Part shown: piece by piece, positions 3,348-25,465 of the stretch
Numbering within the stretch: position 1 is the stretch's first letter
How the letters are laid out: each line of letters opens with the position of its first letter
Position numbers and translations under genes: made by a program
Origin: a virus
Taxonomy: Duplodnaviria > Caudoviricetes
Length of the DNA stretch: 64,000 nucleotides
Virus record (IMG/VR): IMGVR_UViG_2645728028_000002
Coordinates: 1 to 64,000 of that record
Strand: one strand, 5' to 3'
The notes under the pieces: generated by a model
The model's database searches: none
Seen by the model: only the letters and a program-made list of their open reading frames with translations
Told to the model about the DNA's origin: nothing

Positions 3348-5867
3348 TTATGATCCAAATGGACTTACTATATGCCAAGCAAATTGAGCATTGATATTTG
3401 GATCAGCATTCACATTAATTCTGAACGATGTGCTAGTTACATTATTAATCCAAAATTTATACGCTGCCCCCATACCGTCAATAGACACTACAGAAATATT
3501 TCTTGCTGCAGGCGTTACATCTAATCCGTGTGCAATATCAATAAAGGTTGTACCATTTAATATAGTACCTATCCCATCTGATTCTGTTTTAAAACCATGA
3601 TTATCCTTTATTATTGCATTTGTAGTAAATCCTGCCAGTTCAATTGTCTTACCGATAAAACTACCTGTTGATGATGTTCTAAACCTATTACCAGTAATGA
3701 TCGCCCCTGTACTGTCTGCAAAGTAGAAGCCCTTCGTTGCGACTGCTTGGGCTAATACTGTGTTATCGGTTGTGGTATGTCCCGATCCTACTTTTTGAAT
3801 ATCTAACAATGGATGATTTTGTGCCGTTTCAACTCGAATATCATTATTTGAATATCTTGCGTGTTGCCATCCACCTGTTGCTGTGGAAGGGACTCTAACA
3901 ATCATTCCACCCAAGTTATCTCCGATACTTTTTACTGTTATGTGATTATTCGTAAGTTTAAATGCTTGAATATCCCCATTTCCAGTTTTATCGATGAAGT
4001 GACCTTTATCGAGAAGTACCACGTTATTATCTATTAAATGACCGTTTTGAAGGCTAGTTCCGTTCATTAATATAGCCGCTCCGCTATGCTCACCGTAAAA
4101 TTGATTACTTTGGATTATGGCTTGCCTGCCGTTGATTTTAATTAAACTAGCTCCAGTAGTACCGAAGAAAGAATCTCCCCCACGAAATAGACAGCCTACT
4201 ACACGATTTTGAGTTTGAAGTGTCAATCCAAGCTGTTTATTTTGCCAAAACATACATCCATTAAATCCGCATCGCTCCACAGTACCATTAATACCAATTC
4301 GATTGTAATTGAACTTTGTACCATGAAAATCTACATCCAGTAAAGTGCCATCTAAACCAATGTCGTTATATCGGAAATCGTTAACGCCAAAGTTAGGATG
4401 CTCGTTTTGTACCCACATACCAACATTGTTGTACCAAAAGCGATTCCCATGAACAGGAACATAACGAACATGATTGTTTAATCGGACTGCAATATTTAAA
4501 TAAGCAAAATAGCAATCTTGAATAAAAAATTGTTGTACCCAATTTTCGCCTATTGCTCCAAAATCAATACCATTCACTGTCGCTTTCCCATCAGGCTGAT
4601 AGTTTAAACTGCCCCCATTCCCTATAATAGACATCCCTTTAAATCCACCAAACTCAACTGTTGCAACTTGGCTTATTTGAAAGATTGCCAACCCGTTAAC
4701 AGCATTTGTAGGCGGTTTAATGACAGTTGCCCCTGCTCCTGCCCCTTGCCAATACACGCAAGGGTCAAAAACAACACCTTGCACTCTGTAAGTACCGGGA
4801 GGAATAAGAACTACTCCACCGCCCTTCGACAAAATAAAATCGTGAGCCGCTTGGAATGCTATTGTATCATTCGCAATACCATCTCCTCTTGCCCCGAAAC
4901 TTCTTACGTTTATTGCAATATCAGTTACATGATCTTTAAGAATATTATAATTTTTAAGCTTTGTTACATCTAACTCGTCCTGTCCACCAATTTCATGAAC
5001 GGAATTGTGTTTTTTAGTGATACTTATTGTTCCTTCATACCACTTAGCAAATACAACTGTGCCTGCTGGAACACCTTCAGATAATGTGATAGTAGTTGAG
5101 TTTGTCTCAACATATCCTTGACCACTTACCTGTGGAACCCCACCAACCCAAACCTCAATATTGCTCTCTCCAACAACATAATTCCCATTTGTGATAGTGA
5201 ATACTTTTTGACCTTCAGTGGCAGTCCATGTTCTTTTGTTCATTGTTGCCTGTGGTGAAATAGTAGTCCAATATGTACCATTTAATGGAGTAATGCCAGC
5301 CGCAGCATTTAGAATACAAATGTAATTTATTCCACCATATGTAACAACGTTCCCACTTTTATAGGCTTTGGTTGGATTGTATTCTCCTTTATGTCCTAAG
5401 TTATCTCCCTGCTCTCTAGCGTAATCGCCTGCAGAGATAGCGTCATTTTTAACTTGATCAACTTCAACAAATAACTGCTGAATCAGTGTCATATCCTTAG
5501 AGGTATCTACATCTTTCTCACTGTCTATTAATATTTTCACTTTAAAAGGTCTGGTAGATATTCTATCTCCATCACTATCATGGAACTGGAGAGTAACACT
5601 TAAATCTCCAGTAATTTGCATTTCAGTTGAACCAAAGTTATATACAATTTTTCCGTCTAAAACAGAAGCAAGACCTGAGACAACTAATCCATCAGGTCTT
5701 GTTAAAAGAACATGTACAGTATTAATATTTGTTAAATCATATGGTTTCCCTTCATCGTATATAGAAAACACCAGTTTCGCAGAATCGTTTTGAACAAAAA
5801 CTGGAACTTGAGTAGAAGTCGCTCTCTTGAAATCCAATATGAGGTAATATTCATTCTTTAATGCCAT
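3348..5867 (-). CDS. Tail spike: BppU-like baseplate anchor plus pectate-lyase-like beta-helix (depolymerase)
   Basis: N-terminal FVQND...DEGKPYDL (BppU-like); INVRSFGARGDGIANDTIAFQAA...GGGVVLIPPGTY (Pectate_lyase_3 start); Asn/Gly-rich beta-helix repeats. Confidence 0.85.
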   Translation of the reverse strand: MALKNEYYLILDFKRATSTQVPVFVQNDSAKLVFSIYDEGKPYDLTNINTVHVLLTRPDGLVVSGLASVLDGKIVYNFGSTEMQITGDLSVTLQFHDSDGDRISTRPFKVKILIDSEKDVDTSKDMTLIQQLFVEVDQVKNDAISAGDYAREQGDNLGHKGEYNPTKAYKSGNVVTYGGINYICILNAAAGITPLNGTYWTTISPQATMNKRTWTATEGQKVFTITNGNYVVGESNIEVWVGGVPQVSGQGYVETNSTTITLSEGVPAGTVVFAKWYEGTISITKKHNSVHEIGGQDELDVTKLKNYNILKDHVTDIAINVRSFGARGDGIANDTIAFQAAHDFILSKGGGVVLIPPGTYRVQGVVFDPCVYWQGAGAGATVIKPPTNAVNGLAIFQISQVATVEFGGFKGMSIIGNGGSLNYQPDGKATVNGIDFGAIGENWVQQFFIQDCYFAYLNIAVRLNNHVRYVPVHGNRFWYNNVGMWVQNEHPNFGVNDFRYNDIGLDGTLLDVDFHGTKFNYNRIGINGTVERCGFNGCMFWQNKQLGLTLQTQNRVVGCLFRGGDSFFGTTGASLIKINGRQAIIQSNQFYGEHSGAAILMNGTSLQNGHLIDNNVVLLDKGHFIDKTGNGDIQAFKLTNNHITVKSIGDNLGGMIVRVPSTATGGWQHARYSNNDIRVETAQNHPLLDIQKVGSGHTTTDNTVLAQAVATKGFYFADSTGAIITGNRFRTSSTGSFIGKTIELAGFTTNAIIKDNHGFKTESDGIGTILNGTTFIDIAHGLDVTPAARNISVVSIDGMGAAYKFWINNVTSTSFRINVNADPNINAQFAWHIVSPFGS

Positions 5868-6382: not shown

Positions 6383-9300
6383 CTACGCATAAGTAATTTC
6401 CAAAGTAGCTGAGATACTAAACTTTGCATAATTGCTTGATGAAGTTGAATCAACATATATTCCAATACCCTTGTAAGTTCCATTTTGGAATCCTGCATAA
6501 AAGCTACTTGGCAGAGTAACCCATTTAGATTCTCCCCATCTAAATGAAGCTGGATATGCTTGAATACTCGGATAAGAAGGTTGACCAGCAGGTAAACTTG
6601 TATAATTGTGCGGTCTAAAATAACAATTTACTGCTCCAGAACTTCCTCCATTATTTAATCTTGTAACTTTAATTCTTATTGACTTTATAGTTTTACCTGT
6701 TACTGTTGAAGAAGGGGAAGAGCCGAATATCCATAATCCACGATATACTCCATATCCACCATAATATCCCTGAACAACTGTATTTCCGTTCAACCAACTT
6801 CCACCAAAATTATCTCTCCATGCATTCCCTGTAGTTGATCCAAATCTTTTTGTTGTCTCAACAGGACTAGGAGGTGAAGGAGGAGTTATTGTAGGATAGG
6901 TATATGTAGCATGAATCTGTCCACCATGAGAAGCAGATGAGTTGGCTGAAGAGCCTAATGGTGCTTTACCTGTTCCAACAGCAAATCCACCTTGAGCATA
7001 GACTCCATACTGTGAAGCTTGACCAGTAGTATCCTCAATCCATGCAGTTGATCCGTATCTTGCACAAATCCCTAGAGTTACATTACGTACATCACAGTTT
7101 ATTATTTGACCAAACCCACTCTGCAGAATATCAAAACCACGTTCTGAATTATTGCCGTATAGATTAATATACTCAAATACCGCATAGTTATTTTGAAATG
7201 ATGATACGACAGAGTAACTGCTAGGTCTTCCGTTAATAGTGAAATTTCTAAACCTAATGTTTATTAGATTTCCACCTGCTGAAAGATTCCCAACAATTTT
7301 AGTGGAGTTTTGCCTTTGACCATCTATTGTGATTGAACCCTTACCTGTATAACCCCTAAGAGCAATATCTTCATATAAAACTGAATCTGCAGCTATCCAA
7401 ATTTGACAGTTACCATCATAAGAAGCAGGTATTCTCCTTAGAGCCTCCGTGATACTTGCTAATGGGGCATACCAACTAGTTCCATGATTTTCATCATCTG
7501 GAGCAACTGAACCTGTATACTCAGTTAAAATTCTATCAGACACATAGAAAACAAGGTTTTCTGCAGAGTAAGTTACAATTGAAGGCGATTCTAACTTAGC
7601 AACATAGAGTTGATCAAATCCTCTTCTTTCAGCATCAAGGTCTACGGAAATCTCTCCAAATTCATTTAATATCTTGAGGTTTCCATTTCCATTTCCTTCT
7701 CCACCAAGAGTAATTTGACCGCCTTTCATTACATCGAAGGCTAGTGTTCCAAGAATAGTGGTGAAAGCACTAAAGTCAATTGTCTTTGTCTCGGCATCAA
7801 TTAATGTGATTGGATTTTCATCACCAGTAATAATTTTTAATCTCTTTGCCACTAAATCATTAGCAGTTAATTTACCGTTTGAATCAACATAAAAAACATC
7901 TGTCCATTCGGAAGATGCTATATCTTTTACTTGTATTTTGATTCCCTCAGTTGCATTAAGAATTGTCTTAACTAAATCATCTGATGAAGTGGCTGTGAAT
8001 CCTTCTTCTGGTGATATTCTAATTCCGTTATCAATATCAGTTGAGTCTGAATTGCTTACAAGTCTAAATGAAGCATTTTCAATTGTGACTCCTTCATTGT
8101 TGAATAGGAATTTACCACTGTCATTTTCAAGAGTCAATAATTGACCAATGAGAATTTTACCGATGATTTGCTCTCCCACGATTCCTGAGCCTGTAATCGC
8201 ATGTTTAAAAGTTAATCCACCATCATCAGACACAGCAAGAATGCCATTATTTGCTCTAAGTACCAATAAAGGATCATCAGGACTTGTAATTGTGATACCT
8301 CTACGATTAATTTCAACTGAATTATTTAATCCTGCTTTTAATTCTCTTGCTGCAGCATCCCAAATATTATTAATTAACTCTTCAACCGAGTTTCCTGTAT
8401 CCGTAATTGTGTCATATTTATGTTTGTTCATTTGCAGTGTAGTGGAAGTGGACATAGCATTTGACAAAATATCTTTTACAATATCATCGGCATTATTAAT
8501 ATCTAGTATGTCGGAAATGACAATATCAATATCTGTATCATCTTCGCCATTTCGATTTACTTCTAGCAACCTTAACTTTGCATCTATTCCAAACTTCTCG
8601 TAGTGTACAGTAATAATGTCGCCAGTTTTTAATTTCTTCCAGTCTTTATGGCATTCTACAACATTTAAGAAATTAACAATATTCATATTTAAAACAGTCT
8701 TAGGCTTCCTTAGCTTTTTAAACTGTTTAATTCCGAATTCATATAAATCTTCAGCATCTACAATATTGTCATCAGTTACTTCTTTTGTAATTTCAAATTG
8801 ATTTCTTTCAATGATTTGCTCAGGAGTAAAGTTTGTTTCTAGAGAAAGGGAAGTTTGCAACTCTCTAATTGAATTCATTACTGCATCTACTTCTGCTTGA
8901 GCAGTATCTACCTCAGCTTTCTTAGCATCAACTTCTCCTTGTTTAATTACTTCGTTATATTTCTTAATTAAGTCTGCTTCATTGTCTGCCGTTTCCATTT
9001 CTTCAGGTGTAATTTGGAATCCAATGAAATCCCAATCTACCGCACCTTTACCCGATACGACAATTTTATATTCTTCTCCACCAGTAAATTTTTCAACTAC
9101 TTGCCATTCTCCAACATTTAGATCTTTAACAACATCATTAAATTTAAATGTTAAATCTGTTTTTGAAGAGATAATTCCCATTAAAACGTAACTTTTATTT
9201 GGAACTATATTACATGGGAAAGTTTCAGGTATAGTGTTTGCTTTACGTGAGTATTTTTGTCTTGTATACGTTCCTAGTGCTTGTTGAGAGACTACAATAT

Positions 9301-16950: not shown

Positions 16951-18091
16951 CAATCTGTTACTTTCACCCATAAGGTTACTGACCACTAGAAGCAGTGGCG
17001 GAGGAGGTGCTTCTTTAGCAAGTCTGATTACTTGCGACCTCCTCTCTGCACTTTAAAAAACCAAGGGAATATTTGTGCAGTTCAGACTATATCATCATCC
17101 TCGACTTAACGTTAGGATGTCTTGCGTGTAGTCGTTGCGGGGAATATTTCATTCATCATACTATCAATATCGTTATAAATATCAGTTTCCCAAATCTCAT
17201 AATATTTATATCCATATTTAATAAAATCTTTTTTCTTCATTTTATCTTTTTTTATTCTACTAATTTGCTCTTCATTGAGGAGTTTTTTACCATCACCATA
17301 AATTTCAGGATTTCCATGCCAATAATCACCCATTACCTCTATAATTATATTATTTGTTGGAATGAAAAAGTCTGCGAAATATTTCTGGAAGAATCCTTGT
17401 TCTTGAATGAACTCTATATTTCTATCTTCAAGCCAATTCCTAACTAATTTTTCAGGTAATGTTTCTCCTCCTTCTCTTTGGCGGTTTCTGGATTTAGTAT
17501 TCCCTATAAACCAAGCCTTTGAAAATTCAGGATTATGTAGAGTATGCTCAATCCAATATTTATTTTTACATTCCTTTGTGCAGAACTTCCTTGTTCTGAC
17601 AGTAGATGGTTTTTCGCAGCGAAAGTCTTGTTGGCAGTATAAGCATAATTTAACTCTATTACCACCTGTATAACGATTCGCCTTTTCTCCCACTAGATTT
17701 ATAGATTGCCATTTATCATGACATGATTTAGAACATACTACACTTGTTTCTGCACGTGCAGGAATAACCTCATACACTTTATCACATACCTGACAATTCT
17801 TTTTAACTTTATTTACTCTTTCTTTGCCATTGTACTTTCCAAGACAAGTTAAGGAGCAAAAAGCAATCCCTCTGGTAATTTTTTGAGTTTGGGACTTATT
17901 TTTTAGTATTTGCTTATTACATGTTCCGCAGTTAAAAATACATTTGTATTTGCTTCTTGTCACTAGAATCACCTCATTAATTCATAGTGATGAATGAAAT
18001 ATTCTTCCCACAGGATTACCTCTCCCCAGAGGCTTCCCCTGTTATAGCAAGATGTTCCCTAATTAGTTTCCTAATTAGACGGCAATTATTT
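16951..18091 (-). ncRNA. Group I intron (1141 nt) in the tape measure gene, with endonuclease ORF in P6
   Basis: 5' site GGU|AAAUAAUUGCCG gives P1 with U.G wobble; core GCAACGACUA and GAUAUAGUC; terminal G before AAU GGU; removal restores ...ESGNIIG-NGLKT... Confidence 0.92.
17112..17972 (-). CDS. Intron-encoded homing endonuclease (Zn-finger repeats plus Vsr-like/EDxHD nuclease)
   Basis: Three CxxC...CSxxC/CTxxC repeats; C-terminal T.PE...ADFFI...IIIEVMGDYWH; ORF end overlaps the intron core. Confidence 0.85.
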   Translation of the reverse strand: MILVTRSKYKCIFNCGTCNKQILKNKSQTQKITRGIAFCSLTCLGKYNGKERVNKVKKNCQVCDKVYEVIPARAETSVVCSKSCHDKWQSINLVGEKANRYTGGNRVKLCLYCQQDFRCEKPSTVRTRKFCTKECKNKYWIEHTLHNPEFSKAWFIGNTKSRNRQREGGETLPEKLVRNWLEDRNIEFIQEQGFFQKYFADFFIPTNNIIIEVMGDYWHGNPEIYGDGKKLLNEEQISRIKKDKMKKKDFIKYGYKYYEIWETDIYNDIDSMMNEIFPATTTRKTS

Positions 18092-19639
18092 ACCGATGAT
18101 ATTTCCACTTTCACGAGTAGTAGAACCGATTGCAGCTATATATCCAACGAGATCTGACATCTCAACACCGAATGTTTTTGCGGTTGATGCTGATTTTCTT
18201 AATCCGTCTGATAGGTCTTTGGTTGTGACAGCGAAATTATTGTCAATTTCGTTAAGTTGATCAGCAATTGTGATTGAATCTTTAGCAGCAATATTAAAAT
18301 TCAACATTGCTGAAGTAAGCGTATCAACTGCAGCATTTGCATCTAAATCTGAAATATTTTGGAGTACTTGTGCAGTAGATGAGATGTCAATTAACTCATT
18401 CTCCTTAAATCCCATTCTTCCAAAGTCACCCATAATGGATAAAACATCCGTTAACTTAGAAGATAACTCATCACTAACTTGAACGGCATCTTCAAGTAAT
18501 TGAGTAAATTTAAAATCAGGCATATCCATTACACGTTGAATATTTACCATTAATGAATCAATCTCAATTAATCTTGAAGTCATATCTTCCAGTGCTCTAA
18601 TTGGAGCATAGAAAGCTGTAGCTGAAATCATCCAGATCGGAAACTTCGTCATGGCTGTAGATAACATTTCACCAAATGACATTCCAGCTTGTTGAGCTGC
18701 ACCTGCCGCACTTCTTGCATTTTGAGCAACTTGCGTAAACTGAGCAGAAGAACGTTGTAATTGTTGATTAAGATTAGCAGTTCTTGGTGTTAAATTATCT
18801 ACACTTTGTGTATATTGATTTAATGCCGTATTATCTACAAAACCACCATGTGTTGTTCTAATTCTCTGAGCGTTTACTTGAGCTTGTTGTCGAGCCATTT
18901 CTAACTTATGCTCATTATCTCTAATTCTATTGAGGTTTTCTAAATTCTGCTGTAATCTTTGAGTCTGTTGAATATTTTTGGAGTTATCAATAGCTTTATT
19001 TAATTTAGCAAAATTTTCAGCAGAGACTTTTCCTTCATTGTTTAATAACTTTAATTGATCCTTTAATTGTCTCTTTGAATTAGTAAGATTTTCAGTGGCT
19101 TTTCTTTCTTGATCAACATTCTGAACAACTTTCGCCTTACCAGTTTCCGTATTATAAGTAACCTTATTATATCCATCTTTGTATGTTTCTGACTTTAGTT
19201 TCTTTTGACCCTCAGCATCTTGATCATATCGCCTTTTTAATAATTCACCTTGACGCTGTATTGCTTTATTGTTCTCTTCGATAGCCTTAGTTTCTTGCTG
19301 TGTTGCCTTTGTCTTATCATTTGTTCGTTTAATTTCTTTTTCCATAATCTCGCCACTTTTTAAATGTTGGCGAATTTTTTCTCGAATAGTTCCATCAGCT
19401 TCTTTTGTAACAGTTTTCTCTTCTTTGATTACTCTATTTAAATCTTGAGCAATTTTCTTATGATTCTCCATTGCCTTGGAGAAATCAGCAAGTGTTTTAG
19501 ATACTTTATCATCTATTTGAATATTTAGTTTTATAGTGTTGATCTTTTTTTCGATGCCTTTTATGGCACTGTTTATTTCACCAATTGTAGCACCGGAATT
19601 GAGGGTGCCTATTATCCTTATTTTAAGATTGTCAGCCAT
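18092..19639 (-). CDS. Tape measure protein, exon 1 (spliced product about 2449 aa)
   Basis: Phage TMP core (DQLNEIDNNFAVTTKDLSDGLRKSAS...TTRESGNIIG); 1548 nt, intron in phase 0. Confidence 0.9.
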
Positions 19640-22607: not shown

Positions 22608-23969
22608 TTAGTTAGTGGGTGTAAGGGTTTGTGCAACTTTTTTACTTCTTGCCTCATATGCAGTAATTAATTTGAATTTTTCAGCAAAGTCCTTTATAGA
22701 ATCATACCTTTTCATAACTTCTTTATAAAGAAATTCATGTTCGTTTTCTCTCATGACACCAAAGGAAGGTAATGCTTCTTTATATTTACTAAATTTCATT
22801 ATTTCCTTAAGTAATTCTTCATCAGACATATCATGTAAAGTGAAAGTTGATACAAGTCTATCCTTTACTTCAATAAAGGGTAACTCTAAATATGATGAGA
22901 AAATTGAGTATAATTTCTTTTTTATCATTCCCATAGAATTATAGAAAATATCAGGATTTACAGAAATTAATTTAATATTATACTTATTATATAGACTCAT
23001 TTTTTCTTTCATCACAGAATCATAATCATACAATTTTCTTTGTCCATTAAAAGTTTTCATTCCGCCCCATACTTCAACATGAATTTCATTATTCGGAAGA
23101 TAAAAGGTAAAATCACTTCGATAGTTTAAGTTAGAGTCGTACTTTTTAAATGGGTATTGCTCTCTTTTGTAAGGAATGTTTTGAGCGATTAAATAATTGG
23201 CTGTAATTAATTCAAAATTAGACTTATTTATAAAACCTTTATTATCGACTAAATGTACCTTATTGTTGTAACCCATTGAATCCCTTATTTCATTTAGGGT
23301 TCCATGTTTCTGATAGTCTGAAGTGTGAATTTTCAATTCCTTAGATAGAATTCTCTGATCAGGAAAAAATCCATATTCAGTAATAAATTTTTCAATTTTA
23401 GATTTTATTTCTTCTAGAGGCATAATGTATCCATTAGGTTTTCTTTTCTGGATATCGTTAATTTCATACCCTAACTTATTAACCAGTTGACTCAAATCTA
23501 AATTTAAATTTTTAATAGCCCAAGAAATCATATCCCAATTTTTATTTTGTTCCTTATCATCACTTTTACCTGTAAAGCCATTGAACTTAATATATTCCTT
23601 AAGTTCTTTCTCTATATTTTCAATAATCGACCAGTAACCACGAGCACTAGAATCAACTATTAACTTGTTTTCTATTTTATAATTGGTTATTTCCATTCTT
23701 TTCTTATGCCAACAATTTTTACATGCATCCTTTTTAAAAAAATCATATTTTGTTCTAATGTAATCACAATACCTAATGAAATAGGAATTTGGACAATAAT
23801 CACATTTAACAAATAATTCTTTACCTGAGCTTTTTGGTAAATCATCAATACCTACATCAATACTACTGCCTACTGTTACATTTATATATTCTTTTTCCAA
23901 GTAGATTTTTTTATTTCTTGGAGTTATGTTCACTTTTACTGTTTTAGTCATTAACATTTTCAACACCAT
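22608..23969 (-). CDS. Free-standing homing-endonuclease-like protein (Zn ribbon plus PD-(D/E)XK-like domain)
   Basis: KCDYC...CKNC; SNFE...IPYKREQ...RSDF...VEVWG nuclease pattern; very AT-rich with its own promoter. Confidence 0.65.
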   Translation of the reverse strand: MVLKMLMTKTVKVNITPRNKKIYLEKEYINVTVGSSIDVGIDDLPKSSGKELFVKCDYCPNSYFIRYCDYIRTKYDFFKKDACKNCWHKKRMEITNYKIENKLIVDSSARGYWSIIENIEKELKEYIKFNGFTGKSDDKEQNKNWDMISWAIKNLNLDLSQLVNKLGYEINDIQKRKPNGYIMPLEEIKSKIEKFITEYGFFPDQRILSKELKIHTSDYQKHGTLNEIRDSMGYNNKVHLVDNKGFINKSNFELITANYLIAQNIPYKREQYPFKKYDSNLNYRSDFTFYLPNNEIHVEVWGGMKTFNGQRKLYDYDSVMKEKMSLYNKYNIKLISVNPDIFYNSMGMIKKKLYSIFSSYLELPFIEVKDRLVSTFTLHDMSDEELLKEIMKFSKYKEALPSFGVMRENEHEFLYKEVMKRYDSIKDFAEKFKLITAYEARSKKVAQTLTPTN

Positions 23970-24107: not shown

Positions 24108-24338
24108 TTATTTAATTTTTTCGAATTTAATTGAATGCGGATCTTTTAAGTCTCCAAAATAGGAAACCTCAATCTCATTTCCGACATGCGCTTTGAAATC
24201 TTTATCAAAGTACACTCTCATTCTCCATCCTTGAACATTAACAATAACTGAGTTTTCTTCTTTATCGTGTACTGCTAATGTTATTTTCTTAATTTCTGGT
24301 TGAACTTCTTTCTTTTCAATATTAATTTCTTTTTTCAA
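24108..24338 (-). CDS. Small conserved tail-region protein
   Basis: 76 aa, GGAGGTG RBS, directly downstream of the major tail gene as in SPbeta-like phages. Confidence 0.6.
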   Translation of the reverse strand: MKKEINIEKKEVQPEIKKITLAVHDKEENSVIVNVQGWRMRVYFDKDFKAHVGNEIEVSYFGDLKDPHSIKFEKIK

Positions 24339-24403
24339 AGTTTAACACACCTCCCATAAAGGGGAGAGGAGGGCATTGTTCCTCCTCTGTATTTGATTAT
24401 TTA

Positions 24404-24516
24404 TTATACAATGGCATTGTCATCGTATACTACAAGTTCCCACATGTCTGTGTTAACTGCTGATTTAAGAATTTCCATGTTCAAGTCAAGAACTGCAGGA
24501 TCTCCATCTGCACTAA
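24404..24516 (-). CDS. Major tail protein, exon 2
   Basis: Encodes (F)SADGDPAVLDLNMEILKSAVNTDMWELVVYDDNAIV*; in frame with exon 1 after splicing (261 aa total). Confidence 0.85.
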
Positions 24517-24792
24517 CGTTATTCTTCATATAGATTCGCTACATCTATACCGTCAAATTATTGACTGCTTTATGTTTCCATAAAGACGAGACTATATCAA
24601 AATCTTCAGCTCGAACTGTTAAGATTTCACCCATTTCCACTACCAATCGCTTGTAGTGTACGGCTTTCGCCTAGTCGTTGCACCTTCCGAATAGTCGGCT
24701 TGGCTCAAGATTGTCCTCAGCGTTATCTGTTAGGAGTTTCCTTGAATTAAGGTGATTTCGATATGATATTTCTATCATAAAGCCCAAAGTTT
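24517..24792 (-). ncRNA. ORF-less group I intron (276 nt) in the major tail gene
   Basis: 5' site UCCU|AAACUUUGGG (U.G pair); AAUUCAAGGAA/AAUCUUGAG P4 region, GCAACGACUAG, GAUAUAGUCU; terminal AACG|UUAGU. Confidence 0.9.
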
Positions 24793-25465
24793 AGGAAAGG
24801 TTAAAGTTGTCCTCGAACTTAGCGTTTGGAATACGTAACTGACCTTGGAATGCTGCTTTAGTGAATTCATCAACTACTAAGCAATCAAGCACAACACGGA
24901 AAGACTTACCGAATTGGTCAGAAGTAACTTTAATTGTTTTAGCATCAGTTGCAGTATTCACTTGGTAATAAATACGGAATTGAGTTCCGTTAGTAACTGC
25001 AGAGTTAAAAGTTAATTCTTTACCAACTACAGAATACGCTTTTGGTTCAGAAGCAGGTGCACCAAGGGTATATTCTTCTCCATTTGTTCCGTCTGGATTT
25101 AATTTGAATACAGATACAATTGCTCCTTGAGGAGTCTTATCAAGAGTGATTTTACTAGAAGTTACTGATCCAACTTCATTACGGTCTACTTTCTTAGTGC
25201 CAGCCACAAGATCATTACCAGTTAACATTGCGATTGCTGCATTGTCAAAAATAGCATCTTGAAGAGTAATTTTCGCTTCACGGTTAGACGAGAAACCAAC
25301 TAATTTAGCGTTACCACGACCACCACGAGCATAAACTGTTTCACCAGTTGTCTCTACTCCAGAAGTCTTAAGAGTTGTTAATGTGACCCTTGCTTTACCA
25401 GTAGTAAGGTCATAGAATGTAGCGATACCGGCTTCTTTTATCGCCCAGCGATTAGGTGTTGCCAT
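24793..25465 (-). CDS. Major tail (tube) protein, exon 1 (YomU-like)
   Basis: LKTSGVETTGETVYARGGRGNAKLV motif; apparent stop at 24791-24793 spans the 5' splice site. Confidence 0.85.

Follow-up and report, generated by a model that had tools for sequence, protein, structure and literature searches.

The td, nrdB and nrdD (sunY) introns of bacteriophage T4 are the textbook IA2 introns of phages, and are removed by guanosine-initiated splicing. IA2 is also the commonest group I type in the phages of Gram-positive bacteria. The introns of the Twort-like phages and Kayviruses of Staphylococcus are small and often lack an open reading frame (ORF), and the orf142 gene of Twort has three of them. 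In the SPbeta lineage, group I introns are present in the ribonucleotide reductase genes bnrdE and bnrdF. Collaborative homing is known for the psbA intron of cyanophage S-PM2 with F-CphI, and for mobE and I-TevIII in the T-even phages. In prophages of the Bacillus cereus group, IA1 and IA2 introns occur at three sites in the tape-measure gene, in terminase genes and in a tail-tube gene, the last of these in KBAB4 BwK1 and in B4264 (Tourasse and Kolsto 2008, PMC2504315). They lie in frame, many of them starting with or adjoining a stop codon, and they have relatives in Staphylococcus phages (PMC2504315).

We have analyzed 64,000 nucleotides of viral DNA (IMG/VR record IMGVR_UViG_2645728028_000002, positions 1 to 64,000), to which we refer as the window. 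Here the tail-tube gene of an SPbeta-like prophage is split by a 276-nt group I intron at 24517-24792 on the minus strand. We estimate a probability of about 0.9 that this is a selfish, ORF-less intron of the IA2 type that interrupts the gene after the first base of codon 225 and is spliced out of the transcript. The Rfam group I intron family RF00028 matches the RNA at 24568-24813 (-) with 84.2 bits (E = 6e-20, against a gathering score of 50 bits) over the full length of the model, positions 1-253, and it is the sole Rfam family above threshold within the window. This match, taken with the covariation described below, is far beyond chance. The only frames listed inside the 276 nt are of 33 and 38 aa, so that the intron is ORF-less and has no homing endonuclease of its own. 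Thus the 276-nt ORF-less group I intron of the original prediction is borne out, and its ends could be fixed by protein alignment, as follows.

Exon 1 (24793-25465 (-)) comprises 224 codons and the first base of codon 225. It appears in the list of ORFs as a 224-aa frame at 24791-25465 (-), the stop codon of which, U|AA at 24793-24791, straddles the 5' splice site (...TCC|TAA) just as had been proposed. The T is the last base of the exon and AA are bases 1 and 2 of the intron, which is therefore in phase 1. At the other end the terminal G of the intron is 24517, a boundary fixed by the protein junction. Exon 2 (24404-24516 (-)) completes codon 225 with its first two bases and continues in the same frame for another 36 codons to the stop codon; the frame is open throughout, and the encoded sequence has 92% identity to residues 226-261 of P0002, an intron-less relative of 261 aa to which exon 1 is 87% identical. 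Joining the exons by script (24793 to 24516) gives exactly the predicted protein of 261 aa, in which 37 residues, beginning FSADGDP, have been added to the 224. The joined product aligns without gaps to the C-termini of its counterparts in Sundance, FADO and Thrax5, phage proteins encoded by intron-less genes and annotated as major tail or tail tube protein. We also carried out the proposed alignment with intron-less homologues, and found NLS-F-SADGDP running across the predicted junction in P0002, P0003 and P0004, each of which is likewise 261 aa long and matches exon 2 in its last 36 residues.

In placing the boundaries we applied the rule that a U precedes the 5' splice site and a G precedes the 3' splice site. 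No other pair of sites obeying this rule reproduces the length of the relatives, and the intron is therefore 24792..24517. Alternative 5' sites, after AACCU or after CUUU, yield either a stop codon or a product that is 1-5 residues shorter than every relative.

Protein families also indicate that the 224-aa frame is incomplete. PHROG 2729 (virion structural protein) matches it at profile positions 4-216 of 252, and thus about 36 C-terminal positions are missing. The best 119 relatives of exon 1 in a large protein collection, the window's own protein excluded, are 60-87% identical and mostly exactly 261 aa long, and do not in general end at about 224 aa. In a tally of lengths about 84 of these 119 are full length (260-272 aa, mostly 261). 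At least seven other protein clusters end at the same 224-aa point (P0013, P0018, P0020, P0026, P0027, P0038 and P0065), and fifteen are of 230-240 aa. It might be supposed that the protein is made in two pieces that assemble without splicing, comprising the 224-aa product and a 41-aa ORF at 24404-24529, where an ATG at 24529 opens a frame running into exon 2. Yet no ribosome-binding site is found before this ATG, which is part of a conserved motif shared by the 3' ends of related introns inserted elsewhere, and the interruption itself is a full-scoring ribozyme. We consider such a split protein extremely improbable.

The interrupted gene belongs to the family PF27173 / PHROG 2729, of the SPbeta YomU type. 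An AlphaFold model was calculated on an alignment of intron-less relatives with P0002 as the first sequence, with a mean pLDDT of 75.9, which is moderate. When the PDB was searched with this model using Foldseek, tail-tube proteins were returned first, these being 8ygm_A, 8xkn_B and chains of 9jgh. The match to 8ygm_A, which is the tube protein of SPR, an SPbeta-like phage, extends over about 260 columns, the full length of the model, with E = 1e-12 and a TM score of 0.69. The gene order in the window parallels that in Sundance, FADO, Thrax5 and SPbeta yomU...yomI, and within the tail module the gene is flanked by the head-tail joining genes on one side and by the chaperones and tape measure on the other. 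From the structural matches and the gene order we conclude that this is the tail-tube protein, in agreement with its earlier identification as the major tail protein. Strands 233-240 and 251-255 of the model fall in the part encoded by exon 2. On this model a 224-aa product of unspliced RNA would be two strands short, and would probably be unable to assemble.

The closest structures include the SPR tail-tube protein both alone and in complex with the defence protein DSR2 (8ygm, 8ygc and 8yln), and by analogy the prophage tube protein may be a trigger of DSR2. Immediately past the stop codon of the tube gene there is a stem-loop with a 9-bp GC-rich stem (24365-24388), which could be a partial terminator setting the ratio of tube protein to downstream product. 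The gene that directly follows is a 76-aa ORF (24108-24338 (-)), found with 35-56% identity in about 40 related loci.

We turn now to the structure of the RNA. The helices P1, P2, P3, P4, P5, P6/6a, P7, P7.1, P7.2, P8/8a, P9, P9.1 and P9.2 were taken from the Rfam alignment, and every pair in them is standard in the window sequence. All coordinates that follow are on the minus strand. P1 (24783-24795) is formed by pairing of CCU of the exon and the first two bases of the intron with UUGGG. It is short, with five pairs, three of them exonic and two intronic, the last U of the exon pairing with G. P2 (24763-24778) is a hairpin with a GAAA loop. The 5' strand of P3 (24750-24755) is paired with 24627-24632, with all six pairs formed in all ten of the introns compared below and four of them changed on both sides. 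The P4-P5-P5a domain occupies 24704-24746, in which P4 is formed by 24746-24741 with 24709-24704 and P5 by 24735-24732 with 24717-24714; P4 is 95% paired in the comparison, with four pairs changed on both sides. This is followed by P6/P6a (24683-24703), the motif of which is present in 37 viral contigs too. The 5' strand of the guanosine-binding helix P7 (24672-24676) is paired with 24590-24594, generating a pseudoknot with P3. Two hairpins intervene between this strand and the 3' strand of P3, namely P7.1 (24662-24671; 90% paired, with all three pairs covarying) and P7.2 (24638-24658; paired in 100% of lettered cells, with four pairs covarying). P8/P8a (24602-24625) separates the 3' strands of P3 and P7. 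The remainder (24529-24585) folds into P9 (24585-24568, with a GAAA loop), P9.1 (24565-24552) and P9.2 (24549-24529), which are 94%, 77% and 90% paired respectively, and in P9.2 all seven pairs covary.

Covariation was analyzed in a MAFFT alignment of ten related introns, comprising that of the window, the same-site copy from Fictibacillus nanhaiensis, a divergent same-site intron (L080), four from a site nearer the start of the gene (site A, below), one from a tape-measure-like gene (L124) and two others. In the named structure 87.5% of cells are paired, compared with 35-43% (about 41%) when the 3' partners are slid, and none of 500 shuffles reaches the observed pairing. Changes on both sides are found in 57 of 74 pairs. 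All helices from P1 through P9.2 are supported, among them the P3/P7 pseudoknot and the P7.1 and P7.2 hairpins. P3, P6, P7 and P7.2 are 100% paired, and L124 differs on both sides in three pairs of P7. Unpaired cells cluster in the P1 and P2 regions of distant introns, which MAFFT misaligned. A thermodynamic minimum-energy fold of the window RNA alone (z = -2.3) recovers P1, P2, P4, P5, P6a, P7, P7.1, P7.2, P8, P9, P9.1 and P9.2.

P10 is weak, with at best three pairs that are offset by two bases. The short P1 and weak P10 are the weakest part of the intron anatomy, and could be read as the mark of a decaying remnant, a ribozyme that no longer splices within a tail-tube pseudogene of a defective prophage. 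Every core helix is, however, intact, and the Rfam match is full length. The differences from the 90%-identical Fictibacillus copy preserve pairs, exon 2 has kept its open frame and its similarity to the intron-less relatives, and the ORFs of the neighbouring head and tail genes are intact. We therefore think decay very unlikely, although the prophage itself could be defective.

Subgroup IA2 was reportedly defined by Michel and Westhof in 1990 by a pair of additional hairpins (P7.1 and P7.2) that come after the 5' strand of P7 and ahead of the 3' strand of P3. The window intron has both, at 24671-24662 and 24658-24638, and both covary. It is thus IA2-type, an assignment made on the textbook definition. 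The extra helices after P7 to which attention had been drawn are consequently real hairpins, but they are the ordinary signature of IA2 and no peculiarity of this intron.

The structure suggests how the intron would be removed. In the late transcript the RNA would fold into the usual group I core, with P1, formed by CCU of the exon and GGG of the intron, presenting the U.G pair at the splice site. The P3-P8 core with its P3/P7 pseudoknot would bind free guanosine, and the terminal G (24517) would mark the 3' splice site. Two transesterifications would then join 24793 to 24516, generating the mRNA for the 261-aa tail-tube protein. Ribosomes on unspliced RNA would stop at the UAA straddling the 5' splice site, releasing the 224-aa product that lacks the two C-terminal strands.

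To see how such introns are distributed, P0002 was mapped onto about 110 fetched loci. At least one insertion is found in about a fifth of them, a rough frequency because retrieval was pattern-based. The insertions lie after residues 42, 48 (site A), 63, 72 (site B), 224/225 (site C, that of the window) and 229 (site D), and so the tail-tube family has group I introns at six sites; these belong to two RNA families. The IA2-type family of the window intron scores 63-90 bits with RF00028 in loci L105, L113, L009, L080 and L043. The second family consists of ORF-less insertions of roughly 260-300 nt with conserved motifs of their own, at residue 42 and at sites A, B and D (L008:4688-4957; L009:3738-4000 and 4073-4330; and in L087, L112, L113, L043, L107 and L115). 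It reaches the gathering score of RF00028 only with lax filters, in Metabacillus arenae (52.4 bits), and RF00028 missed the Fictibacillus insertions at sites A and B altogether. As the other members are missed, scans based on Rfam under-count introns of this kind. At site A, related introns do encode DUF7487/DUF559 or LAGLIDADG ORFs. For two site-A insertions (L113:452-815 and L105:121-475) we found no pair of sites with U at the 5' and G at the 3' end that restores the invariant G-G-R-G-N motif; perhaps a G precedes the boundary there, or the intron has shifted by one base.

The tail-tube gene of Fictibacillus nanhaiensis (L009, NZ_JARMFC010000006, 3594-5173) is interrupted after residues 48, 72 and 224/225. 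RF00028 recognizes the third insertion only; we nevertheless count three introns in this gene, those at sites A and B being assigned to the second family by shared motifs read by eye. The site-C intron is 89.9% identical to that of the window, as against 76-83% (DNA level) for the exons on either side. This suggests that the two introns share an ancestry more recent than that of the gene, although the higher conservation of the intron could in part reflect constraint on the ribozyme rather than recent transfer.

A related intron lies outside this gene. In IMGVR_UViG_3300037467_000853 (L124), an intron at 8223-8485 (-) interrupts a tape-measure-like gene in phase 1 after TCCT. It has compensatory changes in P1, P3, P4, P7, P8 and P9, and the A-U pair of P1 beside the splice site is U-A in this RNA. 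The family appears to re-target sites ending in CCU. Site C is located between the conserved FEDNF and GDP blocks, and only alleles with an intron have the CCU that pairs in P1. In an intron-less allele (L068:3200-3250) the 3' flank TTAGTGCAGATGG is identical to that of the intron-bearing window allele, and this may be a former or a potential homing site.

Beyond these loci, a comparison of the intron DNA with 269 genomes of the same bacterial family showed that only the window's own genome carries the intron. Among phage records it has 71-74% identity over about 76% of its length to annotated group I introns (intron_gpI) of Staphylococcus myoviruses and to a Bacillus cereus phage, and many phages of Staphylococcus and Bacillus have relatives at this level. 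A megablast search with the locus gave no match in a collection of phage records from which near relatives may be missing, and none of the B. cereus-group plasmid records matched more than 36% of the query. A Clostridium tetani plasmid gene, 66% identical in a match stopping at residue 223, proved to be an intron-less CDS of 278 aa.

The tape-measure gene of the prophage is also split, by a group I-like intron of roughly 1.14 kb at 16951-18091 (-). This intron contains an ORF of 286 aa (17112-17972) with weak matches to Vsr/DUF559/MTES_1575 and to zinc fingers, flanked by sub-threshold matches to RF00028 of about 30 bits each at 17830-18102 and 17064-17230 (-). When aligned to SPbeta YomI, the 150 aa that end before 18092 and the 150 aa that start from 16950 meet at adjacent codons (7731|7730 in L161), and SPbeta yomI is a single continuous CDS. 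A third match to RF00028 in the genome (G000:C19:3363041-3363168, L007; 22.5 bits) is fortuitous, since it falls within an uninterrupted aldehyde dehydrogenase ORF of 512 aa; that ORF belongs to a microcompartment cluster. In the Rfam alignment the tape-measure intron passes straight from P7 to the 3' strand of P3, without P7.1 or P7.2, and blastn finds no sequence similarity between the tape-measure and tail-tube introns. From these two differences it is reasonable to suppose separate acquisition, as the original prediction proposed, and it is plausible that the two introns entered the tail module independently.

With the tube and tape-measure genes each split, and the halves of the latter abutting exactly on YomI, it had been proposed that two self-splicing events could serve as a timing, ion or temperature checkpoint for tail assembly. 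The in-frame stop codon at the splice site would make full-length tube protein strictly dependent on splicing, and the splicing of T4 introns in vivo varies with translation and growth state. We find nothing in the sequence that supports the proposal, however, and no sensor-like element is seen in the intron RNA. About 70% of the close relatives make the same protein from a gene without any intron, and the remainder have introns at six positions and from two RNA families, which is the pattern of selfish invasion and not of a conserved regulatory feature. Nor does any other of the 269 genomes of the bacterial family have the window intron. Given a distribution this patchy, selfish and near-neutral elements fit better, and we consider a checkpoint unlikely. 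The intron would instead be a selfish, horizontally moving member of a widespread family of introns in phages of Gram-positive bacteria, and no regulatory device.

Because the intron has no endonuclease gene, we infer that its spread must use either recombination between related phages or an endonuclease acting in trans. A candidate for the latter is a free-standing endonuclease-like ORF of 453 aa at 22608-23969 (-), about 550 bp downstream of the intron. Between it and the upstream 76-aa gene there is a promoter-like site (TTGACT-17-TATAAT, 24092-24064) and a terminator-like hairpin (24025-24001). If there were collaborative homing, this protein would cleave tail-tube alleles that lack the intron, at the insertion site or close to it; alleles with the intron would be protected, and repair would copy the intron into the others. 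Several observations are consistent with such a scheme. The ORF is an insertion relative to the syntenic phages, with no counterpart at this place in Sundance, FADO, Thrax5 or Metabacillus. A nuclease-core motif is common to it and to the Vsr/DUF559-like ORF within the tape-measure intron (E = 2e-4). At its N terminus it has a domain homologous (E = 2e-9) to a DUF7487/DUF559 ORF of 317 aa (L111:3373-4326), which in the tail-tube gene of another phage lies within an intron at site A belonging to the same RNA family as the window intron. Look-alikes in the Atlas are viral clusters with HNH_repeat, DUF7487, DUF559 and zf-FCS, and a homologue is present in both of the site-C intron loci that have enough flanking sequence, occupying the same position in Fictibacillus (L009) as in the window.

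Against this, the ORFs of the window and L009 are just 30% identical where the introns are 90% identical, indicating that the two have not been co-inherited or recently moved as a unit. Homologues lie at the same place beside intron-less tail-tube genes in at least seven loci (L055, L057-59, L061, L062 and L071), and also beside introns at other sites, and thus strict linkage of the ORF to the site-C intron can be rejected. The ORF matches no curated family, of nucleases or otherwise, and a sequence search of the PDB gave no match. Collaborative homing is therefore possible but doubtful as an addition to the reading of the intron as a selfish element. Put more broadly, and just as tentatively, a single endonuclease family might exist in both intron-encoded and free-standing form at the SPbeta-type tail-tube gene, with the window intron retained as immunity against the free-standing enzyme and spread by it. 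If true, this would be a natural intermediate in the proposed pathway for the formation of mobile group I introns, in a genetically tractable lineage of Bacillus-type phages.

The most immediate consequence is for annotation. The tail-tube gene has been mis-called publicly, with the window's protein on record as the 224-aa ORF, and an essential tail protein is therefore under-reported where SPbeta-like prophages are annotated. The loci also make up a compact data set on the invasion of an essential phage gene by selfish introns and endonucleases and their cycling through it, with six insertion sites in one gene of 786 bp, two ribozyme families, and an endonuclease family both intron-encoded and free-standing. 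As a group I intron the window case is sound but ordinary, and leaves what is known of these RNAs unchanged.

This can be seen by comparison with the known systems. The td, nrdB and nrdD introns of T4 share P7.1, P7.2 and a stop codon close to the 5' splice site with the window intron. Endonuclease ORFs are, or once were, present in the T4 introns, and their host genes are those of nucleotide metabolism, whereas the window intron is ORF-less and interrupts a tail gene. The introns of the Twort-like phages and Kayviruses are of the same RNA family, and the several introns of Twort orf142 are paralleled by the three in the Fictibacillus tail-tube gene; they are found in other host genes and in lytic myoviruses, and the window intron in a temperate SPbeta-like prophage of siphovirus type. 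The bnrdE and bnrdF introns of SPbeta come from the same phage lineage but have different host genes. Like the S-PM2 and T-even pairs, the ORF-less intron lies close (~0.55 kb) to a free-standing endonuclease-like gene, here one with intron-encoded relatives. Unlike them, the putative partners in the window differ greatly in their conservation between the two informative genomes (30% against 90%), and the ORF also adjoins intron-less genes. The nearest parallel is in the B. cereus group, where introns in the tail-tube and tape-measure genes of Bacillus prophages have been known since 2008 (PMC2504315). The window intron is likewise in a late structural gene of a Bacillaceae prophage, in frame and at a stop codon; what is new is that it lies in what appears to be another family of tube proteins (PF27173 / PHROG 2729), at another site and in another host genus.
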